A DNA stretch of 64,000 nucleotides from a virus (taxonomy: Duplodnaviria; Heunggongvirae; Uroviricota; Caudoviricetes): the IMG/VR virus record IMGVR_UViG_2851955134_000009. The stretch is one strand, 5' to 3'. Below are positions 2,833 to 57,638 of this stretch, piece after piece. The notes beneath the pieces are model-generated. The model was not told the DNA's origin. It saw only the letters and a list, made by a program, of their open reading frames with translations, and did not search any database. A program made the translations under genes and the position numbers. Within the stretch, counting starts at the first letter, position 1, and each line of letters starts with the position of its first letter.

Positions 2833-3429
2833 TTAATTCGAGACTATTGTACTTCTTATACAAGCAACCACTTCAATATCAGAAAATGCACATTCAAAGC
2901 TATTCTCTGCTGTTGTAATTTTAATCATTCCTTTAGGAAGCCTTGTGATTTTTCGAATGGAATAGGTTCCGTCGATATTGATTAACCAGTTTCCATCAAG
3001 TACTTCAGAAAATTTTTGATCACAAATGTATGTGACGAGTCCATCCTGAACAACAATTGGTGATGAAAGGTTTGCAGGAAGAAATGATGAATCGAAGACA
3101 TATGAACCGTCTTCAATCATTTTGCCTGCGGCAAGGCGAAACTTAACAAGCTCTTCTGTAGCTGCTGTCAGCGAGCTTTGCTTAAGGCCTTGTCCGGTAG
3201 TTAACCATTTGAGGGAGGTTCCTGTTTCAAGAGCACATTGGATTATCCAGTCAGCAGGAAATGTATCCCGCAAATACCTGTTCGCTAGTGTGCTTTTTGA
3301 TACTTCCAAGTGATCAGCTAAAGCCTGTCGTGTCGTAAAGCCATAGGCTTCGACTAATCGCTCAATCGCAGCCTTACCACCTTTATTGGGATTTATTTTG
3401 ATCTCACTTGGGTACTTTGATTTTGACAT
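2833..3429 (-). CDS. cI: CI-type lysogeny repressor (phage 186 CI-like)
   Basis: 198 aa; N-terminal HTH (AIERLVEAYGFTTRQALADHLEVSKSTLANR); divergent from apl/cII as in the 186 switch. Confidence 0.8.
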   Translation of the reverse strand: MSKSKYPSEIKINPNKGGKAAIERLVEAYGFTTRQALADHLEVSKSTLANRYLRDTFPADWIIQCALETGTSLKWLTTGQGLKQSSLTAATEELVKFRLAAGKMIEDGSYVFDSSFLPANLSSPIVVQDGLVTYICDQKFSEVLDGNWLINIDGTYSIRKITRLPKGMIKITTAENSFECAFSDIEVVACIRSTIVSN

Positions 3430-3524
3430 ATCTCTTTTGCGATCCTAGTATCAGTTTTGTACCCAATTGGGTACTTGTCACGATTACTACAGGCTCACCA
3501 CAAGCCAATAGGAGATGTTGCATC

Positions 3525-3746
3525 ATGACCCCTAACATTTCAATAACTCTGAATACGCCACACGTCACAATCGAGCGTTATAGCGAACTTACTGGTCTTT
3601 CAATCGACACAATCAACGATATGTTGGCGGATGGTCGCATTCCTCGGCATCGTCTTCGTAAAGACAAGAAAAGAGAAAAGGTAATGATCAACCTTGCTGC
3701 TCTTACCGTTGATGCACTTACTGATTGCAATGTTGTATTCAACTAG
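3525..3746 (+). CDS. apl: Apl/Cox-like excisionase and transcriptional regulator
   Basis: 73-aa ORF from internal ATG ([14 protein letters not shown]...), first gene of the rightward lytic operon opposite cI. Confidence 0.6.
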
Positions 3747-3778
3747 TTCCATTTTGGGATACATCAGAGGTGTCGACC

Positions 3779-4288
3779 ATGTTTGATTACCAAGTTTCCA
3801 AACATCCACATTTTGATGAAGCCTGTCGTGCATTCGCACTGCGCCACAATCTGGTGCAACTGGCAGAACGTGCGGGCATGAATGTGCAGATTCTGCGGAA
3901 CAAGCTGAACCCAGCTCAACCTCATTTATTAACCGCACCAGAAATCTGGCTGCTTACCGATCTGACTGAAGATTCAACGTTGGTAGATGGTTTTCTGGCA
4001 CAGATTCATTGTCTGCCATGTGTACCGATTAATGAGGTAGCAAAAGAGAAACTGCCGCATTACGTCATGAGCGCAACTGCAGAGATCGGGCGTGTTGCAG
4101 CAGGTGCGGTATCTGGTGATGTAAAAACTAGTGCCGGTCGTCGTGATGCTATCAGCAGCATTAACTCTGTAACACGACTGATGGCGCTGGCTGCTGTTTC
4201 ATTGCAAGCCCGTTTACAGGCTAATCCTGCGATGGCGAGTGCAGTTGATACCATGACTGGCCTTGGTGCTTCATTCGGTTTGCTGTGA
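3779..4288 (+). CDS. cII: CII-like lysogeny establishment regulator (186 CII-like)
   Basis: Internal ATG with AGAGG RBS; [20 protein letters not shown]...GASFGLL closely resembles 186 CII as recalled. Confidence 0.75.
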
Positions 4289-21802: not shown

Positions 21803-21915
21803 TAAAAATACTCCCTTTTGAGTGGTTAAAGTACTGAGATAATGTGAGGAGGATTTGAGAGATAAACGTTGGTTTGGGGGAAGGCTCTGCATTGCCTGTT
21901 GGTGTACCGGTTCCA

Positions 21916-21948
21916 TGGCCCACCGCCACACCGCCAGCAGGCTGGTTA
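21916..21948. repeat. Inverted repeat, left crossover site of invertible segment
   Basis: 33-bp TGGCCCACCGCCACACCGCCAGCAGGCTGGTTA, perfect inverted copy at 23394..23426. Confidence 0.8.
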
Positions 21949-22335
21949 CAGTGCAACGGAGCTACGTTCACCAAAGAACAATATCCTGTTCTGGCCAGAG
22001 TCTACCCGACCCTCCGTCTTCCCGATTTGCGCGGTGAGTTTATCCGTGGATGGGACGGTGGTCGCAAGGTTGATACCGGGCGTGCGCTACTTTCATTTCA
22101 GGAAGGGACTATCGTATCCGGTTTTGATGATAATGATACCGGAGATATCAGTTCGCTCGGCTCTACACAATACGGATTTGGTGACGCTTTAACCTCTAAT
22201 CAACTGGGGGTCATAAATGGCAAAAAGTGGATATTTGATGCATCCTCTAAAGGTGCACAAAGATATGACTGGTGGGCTTATGTATCAGCTCGCCCCCGCA
22301 ATATCGCATTTAACTATATCGTGAGGGCGGCGTGA
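21949..22335 (+). other. Silent alternative tail-fibre C-terminal cassette (Sv'-like)
   Basis: Shares the GEGSALPVGVPVPWPTATPPAGWL junction and the C-terminal NYIVRA with the expressed fibre; no own ATG (track start is TTG inside the repeat). Confidence 0.7.
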
Positions 22336-22956: not shown

Positions 22957-24725
22957 TAAACTGCCCTCACAATGTAATTAAGTGCAATGCTACGGGGTCT
23001 GACAGTGATACCCTTCGCATACCCGCTTCTGATAGAGGTCAGAATAGTAGCCTGCATACCATTGTCTGACATTGCCACGACAGGATCGCTGAATGTTGTC
23101 CCGTCCGGCATTTTAAAGCTGCCCTCACGAAGGTCTGTAATGGAATCTTCATTGTTGAATCCCATGCCGACTATCCCCGAGGTTCCCGTAGTGTCCTGGT
23201 TATAATAATCCAGCATTGCTGTTCTTAACAGCGTTGCCCCTTGTGCGGACAGCAACTTACGTCCTGTATCAACTTTGCGCCCGTCGTCCCATCCACGGAT
23301 AAACTCACCGCGCAAATCGGGAAGACGGAGGGTCGGGTAGGCTCTGGCCAGAACAGGATATTGTTCTTTTGTAAAGGCGCGCCCGTCGCACTTTAACCAG
23401 CCTGCTGGCGGTGTGGCGGTGGGCCACGGAACAGGCACACCAACGGGTAGCGCCGAGCCTTCTCCTAAACCAAGGTAATTGAGGACATCTTTTATACTGC
23501 CCTTAGCGATAATAGCGCGACCAATAGCTGTAAGGGTTGCCAGCGCTGCGCGGTCTGCTCCGGTAAAATAAGGCAACCGATCTGCTGCAGTGGCAAGTCC
23601 TGCCAGAGCAGTGAGCGTGGCATCTGCCGGTTGTTTTCCGTTTGCCAGATCGTATGCAGCCTTGACCGCTTTCGGTGTGGCGGCCAGTATTTCAGACGTG
23701 CTGTTGATGGCACTGCTCAGTTGTACGGTGCCTTTTGCCGTCAGCGAGGCCGCAGGCACTCCCGTTATCTGACTCCACGGGTGAGTGTGGCTGGCAGGCG
23801 CCTTGCCGGCTGCCAGGTCGTATGCAGCCTTGACCGCTTTCGGTGTGGCGGCCAGCGTTTCAGACGTGCTGTTGATGGCACTGCTCAGTTGTACGATCCC
23901 TTTACGGGTCGTTGTTGCATCCTGGGCTGTGTATTTTCCCCGGGCCAGATCATACGCGATTTTCACAGCCTTCGGCGTGGCAGCCTCAGTTTCTGATTGA
24001 CTGTCCGTGGCGCTGCTCAGTTGTACGGTGCCTTTTGCCGTCAGTGAAGCCGCAGGCACTCCCGTTATCTGACTCCACGGGTGAGTGTGGCTGGCAGGCG
24101 CCTTGCCGGCTGCCAGGTCGTATGCAGCCTTGACCGCTTTCGGTGTGGCGGCCAGCGTTTCAGACGTGCTGTTGATGGCACTGCTCAGTTGTACGATCCC
24201 TTTACGGGTCGTTGTTGCATCCTGGGCTGTGTATTTTCCCCGGGCCAGATCATACGCGATTTTCACAGCCTTCGGCGTGGCAGCCTCAGTTTCTGATTGA
24301 CTGTCCGTGGCGCTGCTCAGTTGTACGGTGCCTTTTGCCGTCAGTGAAGCCGCAGGCACTCCCGTTATCTGACTCCACGGGTGAGTGTGGCTGGCAGGCG
24401 CCTTGCCGGCTGCCAGGTCGTATGCAGCCTTGACCGCTTTTGGTGTGGCGGCCAGCGTTTCAGAGGTGCTGTTGGTGGCACTGCTCAGTTGGGTGAACCC
24501 CTTAGCTGTCAGTGTCGCGTCCGGGTGGTTACGGGAACGTACGTGTTCAGCCAGTGACTGTGCGGCTTCCTCCGTTTTCTTCTTCAGCCATTTCGTCCTG
24601 TTTGCCAGTTGCCGGGGGGCTCGATTTGATATCCCGTCTGCACCACCCAGAACCGGATCTGATGTCTCCAGTTGATAGATATTTTCTTCCCACTTTTCTG
24701 TTTCATTCAGGTTTCCCATAATCAA
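22956..24725 (-). CDS. Tail fibre protein (Mu S-like) with repetitive shaft
   Basis: 589 aa; about 100-aa repeats (GTVQLSSA..S.SET.AATPKAVK.AYDLA); C-terminal 145 aa lies inside the invertible segment. Confidence 0.85.
   Translation of the reverse strand: MIMGNLNETEKWEENIYQLETSDPVLGGADGISNRAPRQLANRTKWLKKKTEEAAQSLAEHVRSRNHPDATLTAKGFTQLSSATNSTSETLAATPKAVKAAYDLAAGKAPASHTHPWSQITGVPAASLTAKGTVQLSSATDSQSETEAATPKAVKIAYDLARGKYTAQDATTTRKGIVQLSSAINSTSETLAATPKAVKAAYDLAAGKAPASHTHPWSQITGVPAASLTAKGTVQLSSATDSQSETEAATPKAVKIAYDLARGKYTAQDATTTRKGIVQLSSAINSTSETLAATPKAVKAAYDLAAGKAPASHTHPWSQITGVPAASLTAKGTVQLSSAINSTSEILAATPKAVKAAYDLANGKQPADATLTALAGLATAADRLPYFTGADRAALATLTAIGRAIIAKGSIKDVLNYLGLGEGSALPVGVPVPWPTATPPAGWLKCDGRAFTKEQYPVLARAYPTLRLPDLRGEFIRGWDDGRKVDTGRKLLSAQGATLLRTAMLDYYNQDTTGTSGIVGMGFNNEDSITDLREGSFKMPDGTTFSDPVVAMSDNGMQATILTSIRSGYAKGITVRPRSIALNYIVRAV
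23394..23426. repeat. Inverted repeat, right crossover site of invertible segment
   Basis: Reverse complement of 21916..21948, located inside the fibre gene at the constant/variable junction. Confidence 0.8.
23640..24480. repeat. 300-bp tandem repeats within the tail-fibre gene
   Basis: 23761..24060 and 24061..24360 are identical, with diverged partial copies on both sides. Confidence 0.85.
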
Positions 24726-26734: not shown

Positions 26735-26788
26735 GGGGGCAGTATTGCCCCCGTGCGGGAACGCTGATATTAAAGGCGTTTAAGAAGC

Positions 26789-29620: not shown

Positions 29621-32571
29621 CAGCGGTACTCCTTACGTTGTTTCTGAGCCAGCAGACGCTCCAGCATTTTTTCCAGCTCATGCAGACTCATATTCAGGGC
29701 ACCAGTCAGTCCTGCAGGCGCTGTGGTTTCCCTGCCATTGAGGAAAAACTGAGGATTAAAGCTGACCTGGATACCACCAGACGTTCCACCGCCGGTTGCA
29801 GCTGCACCACGGCCTGAATATCCGGCAGCCAGGATTTCAGGCGAGGGGATACGGGGAACATCCGGTGTCATCTCATTTGCCAGACGTTGACCTGGTAAAG
29901 TCGATGCCCGGGTGGAGATCGGAATAGCGGGCATGGAAGACAAACTATTGATTACGGATCCGATCGCATTTTTAGCAGACGACATAAACCCGTTGATATC
30001 GGGCAACGGCATACTGAAGCGAACACCTGAAGTGTTATCCCGTATTTCTGGCCCCTGAATGCTCACGGGCATTCTGGGGAGCAGTTCACTGGCCATTCGC
30101 TGCCCGGCCAGAGCTGCAATCGGAGTGCTCCGCTGCAGGCCAATGGCGGCCCCCTGCGCGATATTGTCACCAAAGCCCATAAACACGCGGCTCGGCGAAT
30201 GAATACCCAGCTTTTCACTGAACCAGCCACTGATGCTGTCACCCATTCCGGTTACACTGGATTTGAGCGACTCCCATTTGTTTTTGATACCGTTAATCAG
30301 ACCGTCGACAAGATGGCCACCGAAGTCGGTGAACTTTGCCGGCAGATCAACACCAAGATATTTCAGCGCAGCTGCAAAGGCTTTATAGAGCAGACCTGCC
30401 GGCGACCAGTTAATCAGCAGCTTACCAGTTCCCGCGATACCGCCGTTAAAGGCCTCCTGAATGTCAGACCAGCACTGTTTAAACCAGCTACTGATGCTGT
30501 CACCCATTCCGGTTACACTGGATTTGAGCGACCCCCATTTGTTTTTGATACCGTTAATCAGACCGTCGACAAGATGGCCACCGAAGTCGGTGAACTTTGC
30601 CGGCAGAGCAACGCCGAAATATTTCAGCGCAGCCGCAAAGGCTTTATAGAGCAGCCCTGCCGGCGACCAGTTAATCAGCAGCTTACCAGTTCCCGCGATA
30701 CCGCCGTTAAAGGCTTCCTGAATGTCAGCCCAGCGCTGTTTAAACCAGCCACTGACTGTCCCCCAGTTGCGGTAGATAAGGTAAGCTGCTGCCGCGACAG
30801 CGGTGATAACGAGACCGATGGGATTCATCATCAGCGCTCGCCCAATCCAGAGAACGGCACGTGCAGCGCTCATAAAACCGCGAACGAGGCTGCCCGCCAG
30901 AACTTTGCTGAGTTTCAGTCCTCCGCTGGTCAGTCGGCTAAATCCAGTGACAAGCCAGCGTAATTTGCCACCTTCTCCTAGTGCGGTAGTCAGTCGATGC
31001 CAGTTGGTCCGGAGTAAAACAGCAGTTTTCCAGACGTTCACAAAGGGGGAAATAAGGAGATTCAGCCCCAGTTTGAGACCAACAGTCGCTATCTTAATCG
31101 CAAGGAGCGCACTGATGAGCTTAAAAGCCCCACTGACAAATTGCGGGTGAGTCGCCACCCAGTGTTTTGCCCCCTGAATGAGTGGGATCAGCTCCTGAGT
31201 CAGAGAAATAAAAGAGGGGGCGAGCTGATCGCCCAGCGTAATAGCCAGATCGCGACTGCTGACCATAAGCGCTTTAGTGGCTTCAAGGGGAGATTTCAGC
31301 CGCTGATCGTAAGCACTGGCAAGCAAATCGTTATCCGCAGCCCTGAGAGCACCGGCACGGATCTCGCGATATCTGTCCATGTTGGCCAGCATCGGGCGGA
31401 TAAATGCCATGACCTGCATATCCGCGAACATATCGCCCAGACCAAAGTTTTTCGCCAGAGCCTGAAGTGCCTCATCTCTTGCCGTATCATTCTTTATTTT
31501 CATGGCGGATTTGAAGCCGGCCAGCGCTTCGGGGCTTTTGGCATTGAGGTAACGTTCTATAACACTCAACATCCCTTCAATCGGAGAGATCCCCGCAGCC
31601 TTATAACTCGCAACAGAACCCTGCAAATCAATACCCAGATCAGCAAACTGTTTCTGAGTATCGCGGGCAAAAATTTTGGTAAGAAAGTTTTTAAAATTAT
31701 TGGCTGCTTCGTCGGTGGAGCCCGCACCGATTTTTGCTATCTGGAGACTGGCCCCGATTTCAGCAACAGCCTCTTTTCCACTGGCAATACCCGCCATCAT
31801 TGGGGCCAGGGACTGCATCCACTTGACCTGATCCGGGATTTCAAATGACCCCTGGTCACCGGCATAAGCCATAATATTCTGGACGGCACTAAAATCTCTG
31901 GCCGCACCTTTCAGGGAGTTTTGCCAGACTGCGGCCACTTTTGCCCAGTCCTGAGATGACGTGCGTGTTGCCGTTGCCGCGCGGGCAATATCCGGCATCA
32001 GAAAACCGATATCTGACAAGTTATCAATATTGTCGCTGATGAGCGAACCCACCGCCTCCTGCAGTTCATCCTGATACTGATTGTATTTTTGCGCCCAGCC
32101 TTTTATCTGTCCGGCAAGTGCATCCCGCGTTTTATTGTCATATTTTGCGGTGATCGACATATCAATCATTTTGTCCTGAAAAGACATGGACTGCTGAACG
32201 GCAGGGGAAACCGTATGATAAACAGTCTGTGCCATGCCATACGCTTCAATCCCCTGACCATACAGCGCCATGCGGTTAGCTTTCAGCGCATCACTGGTGG
32301 CTGATGCCGCTGACAGACGGCGCTGCTGGCGCTCAATTTGCTCCATGGTGCGGCTTACCCGCAGCAGCTCGCTGTTGAGATGCTGCATCCGGGAAGAGCC
32401 CAGTTGACCATAACGTTCTGTTGCACGGGTTAAAGCGTTCTGACGTTCCTGCAGGCGGCGTGAGGTATCGCTCAGGGAATCAAGCGCACGGCGGGTACCG
32501 CTCATTGCAGAACGGAATGTGCTGCCAATCATCCCGCCGATAACAACGCCGACTGAAAACTGTCCCGACAT
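29620..32571 (-). CDS. Tail tape measure protein
   Basis: 983 aa, helical and Gly/Ala-rich, internal 87-aa tandem duplication. Confidence 0.85.
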   Translation of the reverse strand: MSGQFSVGVVIGGMIGSTFRSAMSGTRRALDSLSDTSRRLQERQNALTRATERYGQLGSSRMQHLNSELLRVSRTMEQIERQQRRLSAASATSDALKANRMALYGQGIEAYGMAQTVYHTVSPAVQQSMSFQDKMIDMSITAKYDNKTRDALAGQIKGWAQKYNQYQDELQEAVGSLISDNIDNLSDIGFLMPDIARAATATRTSSQDWAKVAAVWQNSLKGAARDFSAVQNIMAYAGDQGSFEIPDQVKWMQSLAPMMAGIASGKEAVAEIGASLQIAKIGAGSTDEAANNFKNFLTKIFARDTQKQFADLGIDLQGSVASYKAAGISPIEGMLSVIERYLNAKSPEALAGFKSAMKIKNDTARDEALQALAKNFGLGDMFADMQVMAFIRPMLANMDRYREIRAGALRAADNDLLASAYDQRLKSPLEATKALMVSSRDLAITLGDQLAPSFISLTQELIPLIQGAKHWVATHPQFVSGAFKLISALLAIKIATVGLKLGLNLLISPFVNVWKTAVLLRTNWHRLTTALGEGGKLRWLVTGFSRLTSGGLKLSKVLAGSLVRGFMSAARAVLWIGRALMMNPIGLVITAVAAAAYLIYRNWGTVSGWFKQRWADIQEAFNGGIAGTGKLLINWSPAGLLYKAFAAALKYFGVALPAKFTDFGGHLVDGLINGIKNKWGSLKSSVTGMGDSISSWFKQCWSDIQEAFNGGIAGTGKLLINWSPAGLLYKAFAAALKYLGVDLPAKFTDFGGHLVDGLINGIKNKWESLKSSVTGMGDSISGWFSEKLGIHSPSRVFMGFGDNIAQGAAIGLQRSTPIAALAGQRMASELLPRMPVSIQGPEIRDNTSGVRFSMPLPDINGFMSSAKNAIGSVINSLSSMPAIPISTRASTLPGQRLANEMTPDVPRIPSPEILAAGYSGRGAAATGGGTSGGIQVSFNPQFFLNGRETTAPAGLTGALNMSLHELEKMLERLLAQKQRKEYR

Positions 32572-33064: not shown

Positions 33065-33161
33065 GATTGTGCTCCTGTGTAAGTTCAGGGCAGTATGTCG
33101 GGAGAAGCGCGTGACGGATATTAAAGGAGATTAAGAAGAAGGGGCCGGAGCCCCTGTGATG

Positions 33162-38971: not shown

Positions 38972-39185
38972 TTTGCTGTCCCGCGTTATGTTGTCGGAGA
39001 CAGTTTGTGAGAAATGCGGGCCCGGCGATTTTAATCTGCTTTAGAAAACATCAGGGGAGAAGGACAGGGAAAGCAATGTGGTGAACCGGAGGCAGTTATA
39101 AAACAGAGGCTGTAAAGCCTTTATAAAGGTAATACAGCCCCTCATTCGCTGGCAATGATAAATCACCCGCCTGAAGAGAGAAAAC

Positions 39186-44647: not shown

Positions 44648-45294
44648 TTCTGTAATCCTTCCCGTTCATCCAGTAGCGCGTTTATCTGGTTCCGCCAGCG
44701 ACGACATTGCCCTGCGTTGTCGATGATGTTGGCGAGAACGTCACGCTGGGAGACGCCTGAGTCGCGTAGCCAGGCGTCAGCGGTTTCAGGTTGCCCGGTC
44801 GCTGTGCCAGAGCGGGTGCCAGTGGCGGCAACTGAGTCTGAATGACCGCTGTCGACGGATGCGTTGTCATATCCGAGTGCGGCGTTGTACTGGCGCACGA
44901 AACCGCGAGTAAACACGCACTCAATGGGATGGCTCTTACCTTTTTCATCAATCCAGCGCTGTGTGACATCGTTAATTTGCCCCTGTAGTTGTTTATTCCG
45001 GCTCTCCAGTTGAGCAATCTGCTCAAGGTAACTGGCTTCAGCCTGCTGCCCGGCGGCCACCTGCTCCTGATACCGTTTTGCCCAGGCCCGCAACGCAGCG
45101 TTCTCAAGCGTTGCCTGCTCCGTTTTGTATTTGTCGAATGCTGACTGCAACTGACTGAGCGCGGTATTACCGTCACGCTTTGCAGAGTCATGACCACTGC
45201 TGTATCCCATGGCATACAGGCCGACCAGAAAGGCATTGATAAGAATGGCCAGCAGAATGCCGCGCCACGGCAGCTTTTTAACCAGATGCCACAC
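44644..45294 (-). CDS. Spanin-like lysis protein (TM plus coiled coil)
   Basis: Start set to GTG at 45294 with GGGAGG RBS; TM GILLAILINAFLVGLYAMGY then coiled coil. Confidence 0.55.
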   Translation of the reverse strand: MWHLVKKLPWRGILLAILINAFLVGLYAMGYSSGHDSAKRDGNTALSQLQSAFDKYKTEQATLENAALRAWAKRYQEQVAAGQQAEASYLEQIAQLESRNKQLQGQINDVTQRWIDEKGKSHPIECVFTRGFVRQYNAALGYDNASVDSGHSDSVAATGTRSGTATGQPETADAWLRDSGVSQRDVLANIIDNAGQCRRWRNQINALLDEREGLQK

Positions 45295-46018
45295 AACTGC
45301 TGCCTCCCCATGTGAGATATCGCGGTGCCAGCTCGCGCAGGATGCGTTGTGGATAATGGCGGTTCTCCCGCCAGCTGGCAGCATTGCGTCCGGCATTCAC
45401 CGTGGCGACATGTCCGAACCAGCGCTGACTGTCCAGCCCCAGATATGCGGCGAGCCGCTGGTCACGGCGCACCCAGCCCGGGCCACCGTTATAGCCCGAC
45501 AGTGTCATGGCCATACGCTCGCAGTCGCTGGCGGCACTGATGCGCTGCCACAGCCAGCGGTCATAACTGACCAGCGCCCGGATAGCCCATGCCGGATTAA
45601 ACGGCTCTCGACTGCTCAGCGCCGGCATCAACTGGCTTATCCAGTCGGCAGTGGCAGGCATAAACTGCGCCAGTCCCTGAGCCCCCACCGGCGAGATCGC
45701 ATCAGGTCGCCAGCCGCTTTCCTGATGCAGTTGCGCAGCGAAATCAGCCACCGGCGCAGACAGTCCCCATTCAAGCCGGGCATTACGGATCACATCATCG
45801 CGATACTGCAGGGCAGCCCGCGGGGGCTGTGCTGCGGATGCCTGACTGAAAAAGCCACCACACCAGAGCAACATTGCGACAAAGAATACCCATGCCATAT
45901 GAACCAGAAAGGTCCCGGCGCGGACTGACAGGCGTTCGGTTCTGATGAAGACCCGAAAGGCTTCGAAAGCCAGTTTCAGGGACATGCATACAATCCAGGT
46001 GATCTGCGGCCAGTTCAT
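45278..46018 (-). CDS. Lytic transglycosylase endolysin with N-terminal membrane anchor
   Basis: SLT-type motif (LHQESGWRP...AQGLAQFMPAT) and hydrophobic N-terminus; follows holin-like gene. Confidence 0.75.
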   Translation of the reverse strand: MNWPQITWIVCMSLKLAFEAFRVFIRTERLSVRAGTFLVHMAWVFFVAMLLWCGGFFSQASAAQPPRAALQYRDDVIRNARLEWGLSAPVADFAAQLHQESGWRPDAISPVGAQGLAQFMPATADWISQLMPALSSREPFNPAWAIRALVSYDRWLWQRISAASDCERMAMTLSGYNGGPGWVRRDQRLAAYLGLDSQRWFGHVATVNAGRNAASWRENRHYPQRILRELAPRYLTWGGSSCVASG

Positions 46019-46020
46019 GA

Positions 46021-46371
46021 TTAAAGCCCCATCGCAACAGCCAGACAGACAGCTGCAACAATCAGTGCACGACGAAGCAGGGCGGCAGCAAACACCAGAT
46101 GAAGCCCGGTCTGTACGGGCCAGCGCCCCTCAGCCATGAGGCGCTCGTCATGCTTCAGGTACTGCCCCGGGCGGGCCTTCGGGAAGAGCGAGCGGTCCAG
46201 CCAGTAGCCGAGAACGGAGGCGAGGGAGATGAGAGAGAGCTTGTACACCACCACCGGCAGCTGCTGGGGCGAGACCAGCGCGATGATGAGGAGCAGCAGT
46301 ACGGCGGCAACAAGCCAGCCACGCAGGCGGGTTTTTTGTACGTCTGCGATAAGGGAGGTGAGTTTTTTCAT
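46021..46371 (-). CDS. Holin-like membrane protein
   Basis: 116 aa with 2-3 TM helices, first gene of leftward late/lysis operon. Confidence 0.55.
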   Translation of the reverse strand: MKKLTSLIADVQKTRLRGWLVAAVLLLLIIALVSPQQLPVVVYKLSLISLASVLGYWLDRSLFPKARPGQYLKHDERLMAEGRWPVQTGLHLVFAAALLRRALIVAAVCLAVAMGL

Positions 46372-46503
46372 AAAGATGTCTCCTTGTGTAGTGGAGACAG
46401 CATCACAAATACGGGGCGCGAAGGATTTTAAAGCGCGTTAAGAGAGCCGGGGATACGGGATGCGCAGAATAAACGATGAATTATTCACAGAGGAGAATAC
46501 GAT

Positions 46504-47247
46504 ATGACGCACACACTGAATCCGGTCATCACTGTCACTGTGTCCGGTCCTGTGGGCAGCGGTAAAAGTTACGTACTGGCGCGGATAGAAGAGATGGTGA
46601 AACAGGAACTCGGAAACAGCGTCATTGTCGATGCTGCTGACGTGGAGAATGAGCGCCGTATGAGTGGCGATGATCTGACGACCTGGCAGAAGCCACGGGC
46701 TGGCACAGTGATCAGGCTGGAGGAATACACGGGACAGGGCCTGTTGTCATACGGCGAGGAGCGTATCTGTCGGACGAATGAGCTGCTGGATGTTATATGC
46801 CCCGCGGGCCGGCAACCCTGGATACTGCCCGATGCACTGCATGCCACCATTGCGGCACTGATGACAGTTTACGATCAGGAACTGCTCATGAAGGAGTTAC
46901 GTAAACTCACCGGTCAGCCAACAGAATGTTTTTCGGCCCCGAAGTACGGGAAGCAGGAACACATCCCGGTGAACACAATCCCCGTTAACCAGCCTCCCCG
47001 GTTCTTCGACGAATACATTCTGACACCGGAAAATAAAGCTGAGCATGAAGAGATCAAAGAGGCGTTGTTCCGGGAAATCAGGAAGATTGCTGAAATGCAA
47101 CTGGGGGGCGGGCTGGACAGAGTGATGGCGAGAGGAGAATGGGAGTCGCTGTTTGAAAGAGTTTCCCCGGAATTACTGCCCCTCGCACTGGCTATCGGGA
47201 TTATGCAGACAGCAGATAAACCTCACTTACGTTCATCAAACACGTAG
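46504..47247 (+). CDS. P-loop NTPase of unknown function (accessory)
   Basis: 247 aa; Walker A GPVGSGKS at residues 15-22; lies between lysis genes and repressor. Confidence 0.55.
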   Translation: MTHTLNPVITVTVSGPVGSGKSYVLARIEEMVKQELGNSVIVDAADVENERRMSGDDLTTWQKPRAGTVIRLEEYTGQGLLSYGEERICRTNELLDVICPAGRQPWILPDALHATIAALMTVYDQELLMKELRKLTGQPTECFSAPKYGKQEHIPVNTIPVNQPPRFFDEYILTPENKAEHEEIKEALFREIRKIAEMQLGGGLDRVMARGEWESLFERVSPELLPLALAIGIMQTADKPHLRSSNT

Positions 47248-47300
47248 CGCAGAATATTTTGCCGGTGAGTACATAAAAATCATCATTTAAGGAGTGCATC

Positions 47301-47516
47301 ATGAATCCCCGATTAACGTTAACAGAACATCAGCGCCGTGCTGAAGCAGTGAACAATGTTCTGGAAGATATTATCCGGTTACATCGCGGAGAACTGAGTG
47401 TCTGTCGTGCCGCTTTTCATTTTCAGGGAATACAAAAGCAGTTTGATACTTCTGTTTTTGCAGAAGGTATTACTTATGCCCTGGACCGGATAAGGTCAGA
47501 AAATCGCCCCGGATAA
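47301..47516 (+). CDS. Hypothetical small protein
   Basis: 71 aa; AAGGAG RBS. Confidence 0.5.
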   Translation: MNPRLTLTEHQRRAEAVNNVLEDIIRLHRGELSVCRAAFHFQGIQKQFDTSVFAEGITYALDRIRSENRPG

Positions 47517-47707
47517 TCCCTAAACCACATTAACAGAAATCCCACTATCCCTGCCGCATCATGAAAGAACGACCAGCCCGGTGCTTCGGACCCACCGGGC
47601 TGGCCATCGTCCCACAGAAGTGGCTGTGAGCCGACCGAGGTTCAGTCAGTCTCGCGAGACCAGACTAGCCTGCCATATTTTTAATAATTGTAAAAGGCTT
47701 ACAGATT

Positions 47708-48472
47708 ATGAAAATGCAGACATTACCCATCGTTCCATGGATTGGTGGCAAACGCCGCCTTGCAAAACACATTCTGCCGCTGTTTCCGGCGCATGAATGT
47801 TATGTGGAGCCGTTTTGTGGGGCAGCAGCGCTCTATTTTCTTAAGACACCCGGCAAGATCGAAGTCATCAATGATATCAACGGTGAACTGGTGAATCTGT
47901 ACCGGGTGGTAAAGCATCACCTGGAAGAATTTGTCCGCCAGTTCAAATGGGCGCTGGTCAGCCGTCAGATCTACAAATGGCTGCAGATCACCCCGGAAGA
48001 AACACTGACGGATATCCAGCGTGCGGCACGGTTCTACTACCTTCAGAAGCAGGCGTTTGGCGGCAAGGTGGCAGAGCACAGCTTCGGTACCTCCACCACA
48101 TCCCCGCCACGCTTCAACCTGCTGCGTATTGAAGAAGAACTGTCAGCGGCACACCTGCGGCTTTCCAGAACAGTCATAGAACACATGGACTGGCAACAGT
48201 GCATTGAGCGTTATGATCGTCCGCACACGCTGTTCTACTGCGACCCACCGTACCTGGGTACGGAAGGCTATGGTGTGGATTTTCCTGAAGGGAACTACTC
48301 GCGGCTGGCAGAGCTGGCCCGGTGCATCAGAGGAAAAATGATAATTTCGGTGAACGACATCCCGCAGATGCGCGAGGTGTTCACTGGACTGAACATACAG
48401 ACAGTGAATATCAACTACAGTCTGGCGGGTAAATCCACGCCGCGCCGTGAACTGCTAATCTGCAACTTCTGA
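47708..48472 (+). CDS. DNA N6-adenine methyltransferase (Dam-like, orphan)
   Basis: 254 aa; PWIGGKRRL N-terminal motif and DPPY catalytic motif (LFYCDPPYLGT); no restriction partner. Confidence 0.85.
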   Translation: MKMQTLPIVPWIGGKRRLAKHILPLFPAHECYVEPFCGAAALYFLKTPGKIEVINDINGELVNLYRVVKHHLEEFVRQFKWALVSRQIYKWLQITPEETLTDIQRAARFYYLQKQAFGGKVAEHSFGTSTTSPPRFNLLRIEEELSAAHLRLSRTVIEHMDWQQCIERYDRPHTLFYCDPPYLGTEGYGVDFPEGNYSRLAELARCIRGKMIISVNDIPQMREVFTGLNIQTVNINYSLAGKSTPRRELLICNF

Positions 48473-48588
48473 AACAAAACCGGAAAGCACAATGCTTTCC
48501 GGTAAACCAAACAACTTCCACTATGTCACTGGCGATGTTTTCTGAAATCATCCAGATCAACCACCTGTCTTTTGTGTCCGGGTCAGTA

Positions 48589-48936
48589 TCAGCCTGCGAT
48601 TTTTCCTGGTTTTGGCTGAGTATAGAAGCGCCCAACCTCAAGAAATGAGCGTCGTTGCTCCGGAGTCATTTCATCAAATGCGTCCATTAATTTCTGTTTG
48701 TCTGGTGACATTTTTGGGATAGCGTTGGTAGTTGCATCCCCTCTCTGTCCCGTAACAACGTAAAGCACGTCAAGCCCCAAAGTAGCCCAAATTGCCAAAG
48801 CATCTGCTCCGGGAGCGGATTCATCCTTTTCCCACCGCAATTGGCTTTTATAGGATGCCCCCACCAATTCAGCAAACTCAGACTGACTAAATCCTAGGCG
48901 GTTTCGTTCTTCTTTTAATCGTGAACCAAGTGACAT
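48589..48936 (-). CDS. Repressor-like HTH protein (XRE/Cro-C1 type)
   Basis: 115 aa; HTH (RLGFSQSEFAELVGASYKSQLRWE); divergent from Ner-like early operon. Confidence 0.7.
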   Translation of the reverse strand: MSLGSRLKEERNRLGFSQSEFAELVGASYKSQLRWEKDESAPGADALAIWATLGLDVLYVVTGQRGDATTNAIPKMSPDKQKLMDAFDEMTPEQRRSFLEVGRFYTQPKPGKIAG

Positions 48937-49029
48937 TTTTGTCCCAATATCTATTTACATATCCCATTATTGGGATAATAATCTAACAAATATAAAGCAA
49001 ACATCATTGCACTAAACAAGGAGACAACA
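48937..49029. promoter_or_regulatory. Divergent promoter/operator region between repressor and early operon
   Basis: AT-rich; inverted repeat CCCAATA (48943..48949) / TATTGGG (48968..48974); GGAG RBS before early gene. Confidence 0.45.
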
Positions 49030-49218
49030 ATGACTGCAGACCAGGTCAAAGCTCATTTCCGTCGCAATGGGATCACTTTTACCCAGTGGGCAAAACAGAA
49101 CAACTACACCAGAGCGGAGGTTTACCGCGTACTGAATGGCCAGGTAAAAGCGAACTACGGCAAAGCCCATGAAATCGCTGTCAAGCTGGGATTAAAAACC
49201 ATCACTGACGCCGCTTAA
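49030..49218 (+). CDS. Ner/Cro-like small DNA-binding protein
   Basis: 62 aa, first early gene; HTH-like NYTRAEVYRVLNGQ. Confidence 0.55.
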   Translation: MTADQVKAHFRRNGITFTQWAKQNNYTRAEVYRVLNGQVKANYGKAHEIAVKLGLKTITDAA

Positions 49219-49271
49219 AAAGATACAGCATACGAAAAAGATTATCACATATTGAAAAAAGAGGTGTGCAG

Positions 49272-49580
49272 ATGAGTAAGACGAATGTTTCAAGCTCCGG
49301 CAGTCGCATCCTCCGGGTACTAAAAGCGCTGCGTGGTCATGCTCTGAACGGTATTTCCAACGGTGAACTGGCAGCAGCACTGCACGAGTCACCGGCGAAC
49401 ATCAACCGGGCACTCAACACCCTCATTGAAGAAGGGCTGGCTCTGAAACTGGAGAACGGACGTTTCGCACCGGGCATTCAGTTGCTGCAGATCGCCATGG
49501 CCCACAGTAACGAGATGGCACGTGCACAGGATCGTATTAACGAAATTAACCAACGTGTTATTTCAGGAAGTCGTTTGTAA
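49272..49580 (+). CDS. Hypothetical DNA-binding protein
   Basis: ATG at 49272 with GAGG RBS; 102 aa. Confidence 0.5.
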   Translation: MSKTNVSSSGSRILRVLKALRGHALNGISNGELAAALHESPANINRALNTLIEEGLALKLENGRFAPGIQLLQIAMAHSNEMARAQDRINEINQRVISGSRL

Positions 49581-56826: not shown

Positions 56827-57268
56827 ACAACGTCTTATCCAGCTTATCCATATTGCCCGTAATGAACTGGGTATGGATGAAGACACCTACCGCCAGATGT
56901 TACAGGGGCTGACCGGTAAAGCCTCAACCAAAGGAATGGATACCACACAACTAAACTGCGTGCTGGAATCCATGAAAAAGAAAGGCTTTCGCGTTAAACC
57001 AGCCAGAAAAGCCAGCTCCGGTTTACCGCTGGATAACCATCCGCAGTCCAGGAAAATTCGTGCGCTATGGCTTGAAATGGCTGCTGCCGGCATTGTTCGT
57101 GACCGTTCAGAAAATGCATTAGCGAGGTGGATCAAGCGGGAAACGGGCATCAGCGCCCTGCGCTGGCTCAGTACTGAACAGGCAGGCAGTGTTATTGAGA
57201 AACTGAAGAAGTGGCAGCACAGAGCTGCGGGAGTAAAACATGAGCGACCTGAATCAGTTTCGAAGTAA
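56816..57268 (+). CDS. gemA: GemA-like regulatory protein (Mu gp16 family)
   Basis: 150 aa; MTKQRLIQLIHIARNELGMDEDTYRQML...; AGGAG RBS. Confidence 0.65.
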   Translation: MMTKQRLIQLIHIARNELGMDEDTYRQMLQGLTGKASTKGMDTTQLNCVLESMKKKGFRVKPARKASSGLPLDNHPQSRKIRALWLEMAAAGIVRDRSENALARWIKRETGISALRWLSTEQAGSVIEKLKKWQHRAAGVKHERPESVSK

Positions 57269-57638
57269 AGGGCCGGAACTCCTGGTGGAACTGGCACAGC
57301 ATACCTCTGAGACCGTTCGCGAGATTATTGATATTGAGCCCGCAATTGCCGACCAGATTGGTCAGGCCGTCGCGAACCGCATGATGCAGGTCTGGGGCGG
57401 GCAAAACGTTTATTTCCCGATGGGCATGGTATGGAAGGTCAGTCAGCGCGACCGGGAAATCTTCAGGGAGTTTAACGGACGTAACCACCATGAACTGGCC
57501 CGCAAATTTGGTGTTTCGCTTCAGTGGGTCTACAGCGTGGTTAAGCGGGTAAGAAAAGAAGAACTGGATCGGATGCAGGGCAGGTTGTTTGATGAAGATC
57601 TGCCAGAGGAGACGAAAGACGTTAACAAATCCAGATAA
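57240..57638 (+). CDS. mor: Mor-like middle-operon transcriptional activator
   Basis: 132 aa; C-terminal HTH (ELARKFGVSLQWVYSVVKR); position after gemA as in Mu. Confidence 0.65.
   Translation: MSDLNQFRSKGPELLVELAQHTSETVREIIDIEPAIADQIGQAVANRMMQVWGGQNVYFPMGMVWKVSQRDREIFREFNGRNHHELARKFGVSLQWVYSVVKRVRKEELDRMQGRLFDEDLPEETKDVNKSR

Follow-up and report, generated by a model that had tools for sequence, protein, structure and literature searches.

Phage Mu has four promoters for late transcription, named Plys, PI, PP and Pmom, that lack -35 elements, and its C protein binds a 16-bp imperfect dyad centred at -43.5 (PMC2582627). A late accessory unit of the same phage, com-mom, ends in a DNA-modification gene. 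Here we describe a locus that resembles both arrangements in a BcepMu-like transposable prophage of Escherichia coli. It lies within 64,000 nucleotides of DNA from a virus of the Caudoviricetes (IMG/VR record IMGVR_UViG_2851955134_000009), and this whole stretch is what we call the window. Between positions 46504 and 47516 the window has two open reading frames (ORFs), of 247 and 71 amino acids (aa). Both are on the strand opposite to the late and lysis genes, and a dam gene lies between them and the prophage repressor.

The 247-aa protein carries an N-terminal Walker A motif, which invites comparison with the P-loop NTPases and ABC domains. These share with it a hydrophobic strand, the motif GxxGxGK[ST], a helix and a short strand, and the last strand of the phage family usually ends in an acidic residue, a possible counterpart of Walker B. 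However, P-loop NTPases have at least 150 residues and five or more strands, versus about 75 residues and three predicted strands here, and the ABC signature motif, Q-loop and H-loop of ABC ATPases are absent from the 247-aa protein. In two designed P-loop prototypes in the PDB, 6c2u (a 'phosphate-loop protein') and 9jix (a de novo ATPase), a small protein is organised around one or a few strand-P-loop-helix elements, as in the stand-alone relatives described below. They differ in being laboratory constructs, whereas the natural phage family adds conserved E50, W61 and P64.

A constant N-terminal module followed by combinatorial small C-terminal modules, at a recombination hot spot, is familiar from Bro-N, KilA-N and ANT regulators and from T4-type internal proteins. 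We know of no sequence or fold relation between these and the 247-aa protein, and of none with a P-loop as its N-terminal module.

A first-pass annotation of the window had described the two ORFs as an accessory P-loop protein and its small partner, in a position typical of lysogenic-conversion or defence cargo. In this work we show that both genes are real, that the larger protein joins a small P-loop domain to cassettes that are mosaic between prophages, and that the two genes are separable. What is new is an apparently autonomous, minimal P-loop-type domain and a cassette architecture, in a family that databases hold only as hypothetical. Our preferred reading, to which we give a probability of roughly 0.4, is that the 247-aa protein is a late accessory protein with a P-loop head for a phosphate-bearing ligand and cassettes for variable targets. 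It would serve in counter-defence or host interaction and be co-expressed with an anti-restriction-type orphan methylase.

The N-terminal domain and its exchangeable cassettes

The 247-aa ORF (46504-47247, plus strand, ATG start) is a real gene. It is preceded by a Shine-Dalgarno sequence (GAGGAG, 46490-46495), it matches the phrog_3787 hidden Markov model (HMM) end to end (E = 9.6e-163, positions 1-242 of 242), and its ratio of nonsynonymous to synonymous substitution rates (dN/dS) is about 0.24-0.28 against two diverged copies (dS about 0.10-0.12). The coordinates, sizes and strand of both ORFs, and their place between the lysis genes and the repressor, were exactly as first annotated. The family of the larger protein and that of the smaller one, phrog_4490, are both unannotated in PHROGs v4, and membership gives no functional clue. 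Of 5426 complete E. coli genomes, 582 (about 11%) carry the 247-aa gene, and in 482 of the 582 it is full length. Carriers of the locus, roughly 1 in 9 complete E. coli genomes, include sequence type ST131, and DNA identical to a 1.4-kb query spanning both ORFs (46300-47700) is found in E. coli B771 and VTB96937v.

To place the gene among related prophages, we collected 80 viral contigs that were anchored on the holin rather than on the genes in question. An HMM of the N-terminal (N) domain finds it in 24 of these loci, always in the gene directly divergent from the holin, with 130 bp between the two start codons. The idea that the P-loop gene is a backbone gene of this phage lineage was rejected, as it is in only 24 of the 80.

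The mini P-loop domain covers residues 1-78 (46504-46737, plus strand). It is predicted to have a strand at residues 8-14, the Walker A motif GPVGSGKS at 15-22 (46546-46569, plus strand), a helix at 21-39 and further strands at 41-43 and 69-75. An exhaustive HMMER search over 1.8 billion representatives returned 53 matches. Those outside E. coli align almost solely to residues 1-76, after which their C-termini are unrelated and of varied length, and several are complete proteins of 73-90 aa. Two of the matches, P0043 and P0049, are long repetitive proteins and false positives.

An alignment of 21 N-terminal regions, which share 33-55% identity with the window, has no variation at G20 and K21 and at least 90% conservation at G15, G18, S22, I28, E50 and W61. 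Most members end the final strand with Glu (e.g. IRLEE or FKLEE), and an acidic residue at position 46 (D/E) is conserved, as is E50; any of these may be a Walker B-type residue that coordinates Mg2+. The Walker A motif reported by the first-pass annotation is thus genuine and under constraint, being conserved in relatives that are merely 33-55% identical, and the annotation's statement that the protein has no other recognisable motif also stands. These comparisons indicate that the N-terminal 75 or so residues form a phage-specific domain that is absent from Pfam and that also occurs by itself in unrelated phages.

Structure prediction agrees with such a small unit. AlphaFold2 (AF2) run on the single sequence gave a predicted local distance difference test score (pLDDT) of 46, and we interpreted only the model built from a multiple sequence alignment (MSA) of 49 sequences. 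This model has a three-stranded P-loop-like unit followed by helices, with a pLDDT of 70-85 over the first 40 residues and a low-confidence linker at residues 141-173. The top Foldseek matches among viral models are uncharacterised phage proteins of 72-99 aa.

Database searches recover the Walker A segment and little beyond it. Matches in Pfam, NCBIfam and PADLOC are all sub-threshold and fall within residues 4-56 or so, that is, the Walker A motif and the helix. ABC_tran scores 12.5 bits against a cut-off of 25 and KAP_NTPase 13.8 against 20, with the Walker A region alone aligned; the best ABC_tran E-value among 49 relatives is 1e-4. In PADLOC-DB v2 the best E-value for the 247-aa protein is 0.01, for Walker A only, and the 71-aa protein has no match. 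When the family profile is compared with PDB sequences, its nearest matches are ABC nucleotide-binding domains, those of ABC-B type aligning over about 36 residues that include the segment after the helix; the designed minimal P-loop proteins 6c2u (E = 9e-5) and 9jix (E = 4e-4) also rank among the best. We take the latter likeness to reflect the consensus Walker A segment, not demonstrated common descent.

The domain has the Walker A motif of a P-loop NTPase, conserved and placed after a hydrophobic strand; a complete alpha/beta core of at least five strands and 150 residues was not found in it. The HMM and structure searches proposed in the first-pass annotation revealed no homology to a housekeeping kinase or an assembly ATPase. 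Its suggestion of a kinase-like or zeta-toxin-like NTPase is not supported: a unit of about 75 residues is far below the size of a kinase, zeta toxin, ABC or AAA domain; the Zeta_toxin model (PF06414) scores 12.0 bits against a cut-off of 22.3, over residues 11-47. The 247-aa protein is not an enzyme of a known class. In RefSeq, truncated P-loop genes (L011, 3501-3977; L012, 3480-3866) are labelled 'ABC transporter ATPase' or 'KAP family NTPase' on the strength of Walker A alone, which is misleading. Our analysis corrects these labels on gene fragments.

Stand-alone N-domain genes, of 70-90 aa, were examined on five unrelated contigs. On four of the five, all clearly phage, the gene is co-directional with and among lytic-cycle genes. 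Its neighbours there are an HNH gene and terminase in one case, TubZ in another, a single-stranded DNA-binding protein (SSB) in a third, and a dCTP deaminase and helicase in the last. No conserved partner of the stand-alone genes emerged when these neighbours were compared with each other and with the cassettes described next.

The rest of the 247-aa protein consists of two swappable cassettes, separated by the low-confidence linker, that have been combined in many ways in E. coli and Salmonella prophages. By local alignment we defined at least eight short cassettes, named A to H, which are helical units of roughly 45-140 aa; a Pfam search with the cassettes gave no match. The protein in the window has the architecture N-C-D. 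Cassette C (aa 85-140; 46756-46923, plus strand) recurs elsewhere in Salmonella proteins, e.g. in residues 205-250 of P0024 and 208-240 of P0026. Cassette D (aa 176-247; 47029-47244, plus strand) is absent from the variants of 141 and 158 aa and present in the variant of 182 aa. These three variants, which lack internal or C-terminal segments, come from a word-indexed search in which every relative was from E. coli.

Other E. coli architectures include N-D and N-C. Those in Salmonella enterica prophages, a host assignment taken from cluster names, include N-A-B-C, N-A-B-E, N-B-F, N-G-F, N-A-G, N-A-B-H, N-B-H, N-E and N-F. The N domain is invariably first among the architectures found. Cassettes also occur without it: a 102-aa gene in locus L071 is cassette D alone, and P0063 and a protein in L051 have an H-like segment plus cassette C and no N domain.

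A candidate bidirectional late promoter and the genes behind it

We compared the non-coding gaps of the late region and obtained a common pattern, TTAA-N6-TTAA(A/T)ATC, then exactly 23 nt, then an nAnnCT hexamer. The corresponding motif, TTAANNNNNNTTAAWATC, has four matches in the prophage, where 0.28 are expected by chance. All are on the late strand (minus) and 5' of late operons, each upstream of a late transcription unit (26766-26783, 33117-33134, 39027-39044 and 46424-46441). Other matches in the window, with one mismatch, are at 2804 and 5726, far to the left of the prophage. In the first 16 kb of BcepMu that was scanned, the motif is not significant.

At the copy in front of the holin, the dyad TTAA-N6-TTAA (46428-46441) has half-sites that are self-reverse-complementary, and its surroundings resemble those of a promoter on either side. 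To the left, 23 nt away, is the -10-like hexamer GATGCT (46399-46404, minus strand) of the holin and late promoter. To the right, at 23 nt from the other side of the dyad, is the -10-like hexamer CAGAAT (46465-46470, plus strand) of a candidate rightward promoter, 34 nt 5' of the start codon of the 247-aa gene. A simple scan found no sigma-70-like promoter between the holin and this gene.

This geometry is conserved. Of the 76 holin-anchored relatives for which 300 bp or more of upstream sequence is available, 71 have the dyad, and every locus that has the dyad keeps the leftward nAnnCT hexamer at N23. On the divergent side, 37 of 46 distinct sequences upstream of the holin have a CAnnAT hexamer at N23-24, among them the diverged loci L070, L071, L073 and L085, whose 23-nt spacers are unrelated. 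In six of the nine sequences without CAnnAT the distal half-site is degraded to TTAG.

The likeness to Mu is close in several respects. There are four copies, as there are four Mu late promoters, none with a -35 element; the dyad is near -43, its centre in the prophage being at about -42.5; and a Mor/C homologue is encoded. The gene for this predicted late transcription activator (57240-57638, plus strand) was found by tblastn with BcepMu gp01 (56% identity over 111 aa, E = 3e-41). Both sides of the dyad thus have the sequence features of a C- or Mor-dependent late unit: seen from either, the dyad is near -43, a -10 hexamer is in place and a -35 element is missing, and the prophage has an activator gene. 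The differences are that the promoter here would be bidirectional and shared with the lysis operon and that its dyad is TTAA-N6-TTAA. We infer late transcription of the rightward genes. Their promoter would depend on the bound activator that also serves the lysis operon, with the dyad as the candidate Mor/C-type activator site common to both directions.

The last gene of the proposed rightward unit encodes a Dam-family N6-adenine DNA methyltransferase of the D12 class (47708-48472, plus strand; PF02086, E = 6e-29; TIGR00571, 117 bits against a cut-off of 114.85). With 43 of the 80 loci, dam is the commonest occupant of the holin-repressor interval. It is preceded by a conserved leader (47562-47707, plus strand) with a perfect hairpin of 11-bp stem, in which 47573-47583 pairs with 47593-47603. 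The leader also has a possible ORF of 22 codons, with an ATG at 47562. The same leader is common to the dam modules of other phages, such as Klebsiella phage KP12 and Escherichia phage Phi06_2974 B; Rfam has no match in 45900-49400. It may regulate the translation of dam or the stability of its mRNA. In loci without the 247-aa and 71-aa genes (L030-type), the leader starts about 8 nt after the CAnnAT hexamer. We place the block of the 247-aa gene, in some loci a 134-aa gene, and the 71-aa gene between the putative rightward promoter and the dam leader.

The 71-aa gene (47301-47516, plus strand, ATG start) follows a Shine-Dalgarno sequence, AAGGAG, and encodes an orphan helical protein with a full-length match to phrog_4490 (E = 1.6e-52, positions 1-71 of 71). 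Of the 5426 complete E. coli genomes, 498 carry the ORF with almost no variation, which makes selection on it unmeasurable. All homologues found come from the E. coli prophage lineage or from metagenome reads, with one 31%-identical relative in L071. As a candidate helix-turn-helix (HTH) regulator it was rejected, the sole match, HTH_psq at 13 bits, being too weak.

Was this small gene a partner of the P-loop gene, as first suggested? Its distribution argues otherwise. The 71-aa gene is in 12 of the 24 P-loop loci, and of the 13 holin-anchored loci that have it, one (L071) carries it beside a protein without a P-loop; the other 12 N-bearing loci lack it. Even the adjacency of the two genes in the window results from a deletion. 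Between them, the 53-bp spacer (47248-47300) is what survives, as its first 18 or so codons on the minus strand, of an antisense 134-aa gene of phrog_2266. Alignment with L002 shows that a 325-bp deletion between short GCAnAAT repeats removed the remainder. Just a handful of E. coli genomes share the deletion, and in most genomes the antisense gene separates the two. It is intact in L002 (4861-5265, minus strand), in L018-L021 and in 11 of the 13 viral-contig loci with the 71-aa gene. In intact copies its start codon overlaps that of the 71-aa gene, and the true functional pair may be the 134-aa and 71-aa genes. One locus, L020, has a 126-aa paralogue of the 134-aa protein between the 71-aa gene and dam.

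The 71-aa gene co-occurs with cassette D in 13 of 13 informative loci, although many of these are near-identical and the independent events few. The diverged locus L071, in which the holin has 73% and the 71-aa homologue 31% identity, keeps the order cassette D, 134-aa gene, 71-aa gene and dam. A cognate-partner or toxin-antitoxin reading is therefore not supported. The 71-aa gene is separate orphan cargo, grouped with cassette D and with the antisense 134-aa gene that this copy has lost.

Taken with the candidate promoter, this arrangement makes it probable that the 247-aa and 71-aa genes and dam are a late operon of the mom-like kind and not lysogenic-conversion cargo. Like com-mom, the unit would be late, accessory and terminated by a DNA-modification gene. 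It differs from com-mom in that the modification gene is a Dam-family methyltransferase, not Mom, and that no Com-like zinc-finger protein is encoded. The earlier description as lysogenic-conversion or defence cargo is weakened by the missing sigma-70-like promoter, by the conserved divergent geometry of Mor/C late type and by the lytic context of the stand-alone relatives examined in phages.

The prophage and its cargo site

The first-pass annotation had placed the genes in a Mu-like element. The element is indeed a transposable prophage, of the BcepMu-like kind rather than Mu proper. The closest cultured phage is Escherichia phage PhiKM, of the genus Bcepmuvirus, and counterparts of BcepMu gp01, gp02, gp08, gp09 and gp10 are present with 43-67% protein identity. 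Neither the 247-aa nor the 71-aa protein is similar to BcepMu gp07, gp11 or gp13-gp21. A literature search gave no match for the RefSeq accessions and no functional work on Bcepmuviruses of E. coli.

To the left of the two ORFs are the lysis genes, an SLT-domain endolysin (45278-46018, minus strand) and a holin (46021-46371, minus strand; PF13272). To the right lie the HTH repressor (48589-48936, minus strand), a Ner-like gene (49030-49218, plus strand) and, beyond it, the early operon, whose genes include a DDE transposase and a MuB-like ATPase.

Among the 80 holin-anchored relatives the holin-repressor interval carries many different gene sets, which bears out the earlier suggestion that it is a cargo site and marks it as a hot spot. 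For example, L011 and L012 have a shortened P-loop gene beside entirely different cargo, with neither the 71-aa gene nor dam. In L022 a 141-aa gene is followed by a 164-aa antisense gene and then dam, and in L009 and L073 a 314-aa protein is followed by a DUF7424 lipoprotein. A further 182-aa protein, of phrog_11791 (L012, 4018-4566, minus strand; L042, L045, L049 and L061, about 3314-3856), resembles BcepMu gp19 by eye. Candidates for lysogen-expressed cargo are this protein, the L011 membrane proteins of 193 and 328 aa that share the repressor's orientation, and the DUF7424 lipoprotein of L009. At the repressor position, otherwise similar prophages (L022/L023, L011 and L020) have different immunity modules, with HTH proteins of 115, 118, 138 and 153 aa, and L023 has an additional Mor-domain gene between the repressor and the Ner-like gene.

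Some features elsewhere in the window may be of use to others. In the tail-fibre region, inverted repeats at 21866-22094 and 23248-23476 (229 nt, 86% complementary) enclose a segment of 1.15 kb, in an arrangement that looks like an invertible host-range switch of the Mu G-segment type. A putative tail-fibre gene of 589 aa has three tandem 300-nt repeats (23634-24533), 82-90% identical to the first copy. A putative tape-measure gene of 983 aa has two 261-nt repeats that are 96% identical (30221-30742).

Proposed role and implications

We hypothesize that the 247-aa protein binds a ligand and acts in counter-defence. In the mechanism that we propose, its gene would head a rightward accessory unit of the 247-aa gene, the 71-aa gene and dam, driven by the bidirectional Mor/C-type late promoter, and the protein would be made late in lytic growth, together with the DNA adenine methylase. 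The ligand of the N module would carry phosphate and be a nucleotide or a nucleotide-like signal, and the helical cassettes would dock onto variable host or phage targets. Such a protein would be a counter-defence or host-interaction factor that is diversified through cassette exchange. A DNA-mimic role of the Ocr/ArdA type was considered and set aside: the protein is just mildly acidic (pI 5.2), which lends it no support.

A number of points weigh against this proposal. With regard to the ligand, a three-stranded unit of 75 aa may be unable to bind nucleotides by itself, a few relatives have GKN instead of GKS, and the N domain is acidic (pI about 5). The AF2 model is moderately confident (mean pLDDT 64 and a predicted template modelling score, pTM, of 0.36). 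With regard to the cassettes, truncated variants of 128-158 aa are frequent, in about 100 of the 582 genomes, and given this frequency the cassettes may be dispensable or decaying. With regard to timing, the CAnnAT(GG) element may instead owe its conservation to being a module junction or a piece of a leader. One stand-alone gene lies directly before terminase genes and not among early genes, and the fifth adjoins an NAD-dependent DNA ligase gene on a 217-kb contig of unconfirmed origin; these two cases make the timing argument from the relatives a loose one. Finally, the hot spot also appears to contain lysogen-expressed genes, which leaves room for a defence role of the region as a whole.

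That last point leads to another explanation, that the gene is lysogen-expressed defence or superinfection-exclusion cargo, with the P-loop switching in response to a nucleotide and the variable C-terminus sensing invading phages. The holin-repressor interval is a highly mosaic cargo hot spot, a constant N-terminus with a variable C-terminus is seen in conflict proteins, and the gene's presence in about 11% of complete E. coli genomes also fits. However, PADLOC models match nothing beyond Walker A noise, a conserved divergent promoter geometry of late type is found instead of a sigma-70-like promoter, and the domain falls short of the size of a STAND, ABC or AAA switch. The relatives in phage contexts are co-directional with lytic-cycle genes rather than self-contained morons, and the cassettes are short helical units with no recognisable effector. 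We regard this explanation as conceivable, if unlikely.

Could the 247-aa or the 71-aa protein instead assist dam, in DNA modification or packaging, e.g. by modulating the expression or activity of the methylase as Com does for mom in Mu? The 247-aa, 71-aa and dam genes are on one strand in one proposed transcription unit, analogous to the late com-mom operon, and a conserved, hairpin-containing leader precedes dam. That said, in about 30 of the 43 loci with dam, neither the 247-aa nor the 71-aa gene accompanies dam and its leader, and L011, L012 and L073 have a P-loop gene but no dam. A zinc-finger pattern is missing from the 71-aa protein, which contains one cysteine, and the stand-alone N-domain genes of other phages are not beside methylases. 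A helper role of this kind is improbable.

The truncated or internally deleted variants (128, 141, 158 and 182 aa), the recombination break-points inside the gene and the inconsistent names of RefSeq fragments might also be those of largely neutral or decaying mosaic ORFs, with the Walker A segment as a remnant of an ancestral NTPase that has no present function. We consider this a long shot. A dN/dS of about 0.25 speaks against it, as do the retention of the N domain at 33-55% identity across distant phages, with its invariant GK and conserved E50 and W61, and the intact stand-alone versions on five unrelated contigs.

A type II pair of a zeta/PezT-like toxin kinase and a 71-aa antitoxin, for which only the Walker A motif, the adjacent small ORF and a Zeta_toxin match of E = 0.14 over residues 11-47 speak, is effectively refuted, since that match is sub-threshold and confined to Walker A, the zeta kinase fold of roughly 200 aa cannot fit a domain of 75 aa, the gene order is wrong (the antitoxin comes first in epsilon-zeta and the small gene is downstream here), and the small gene is missing from half of the domain-bearing loci and usually separated by the antisense gene.

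Returning to the late accessory protein, a more demanding form of the proposal can be stated. In it the P-loop domain is autonomous as well as minimal, binds a nucleotide or a signal derived from one, and is, in enterobacterial BcepMu-like phages, the constant head of a cassette carrier. Its helical cassettes would be swapped to neutralise different host systems, and it would be expressed late from the bidirectional Mor/C promoter with an anti-restriction methylase. Members of the family that stand alone would, at 70-90 aa, count with the smallest Walker A proteins in nature. We think it distinctly unlikely that all of this holds. If it did, the protein and its locus would be a previously undescribed type of phage counter-defence.

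The proposed bidirectional late promoter yields a testable timing rule for cargo at this hot spot: rightward cargo would be late and lytic, and cargo on the repressor strand lysogenic. Such a rule matters when prophage cargo is classed as 'defence' by position alone. Should the cassettes target host systems, the locus would amount to a ready-made collection of small inhibitors. Should the minimal domain bind nucleotides, it would add a compact nucleotide-binding module to the phage toolkit. The family would then also be a natural counterpart to the designed P-loop prototypes with which the origin of the most abundant enzyme fold is studied.

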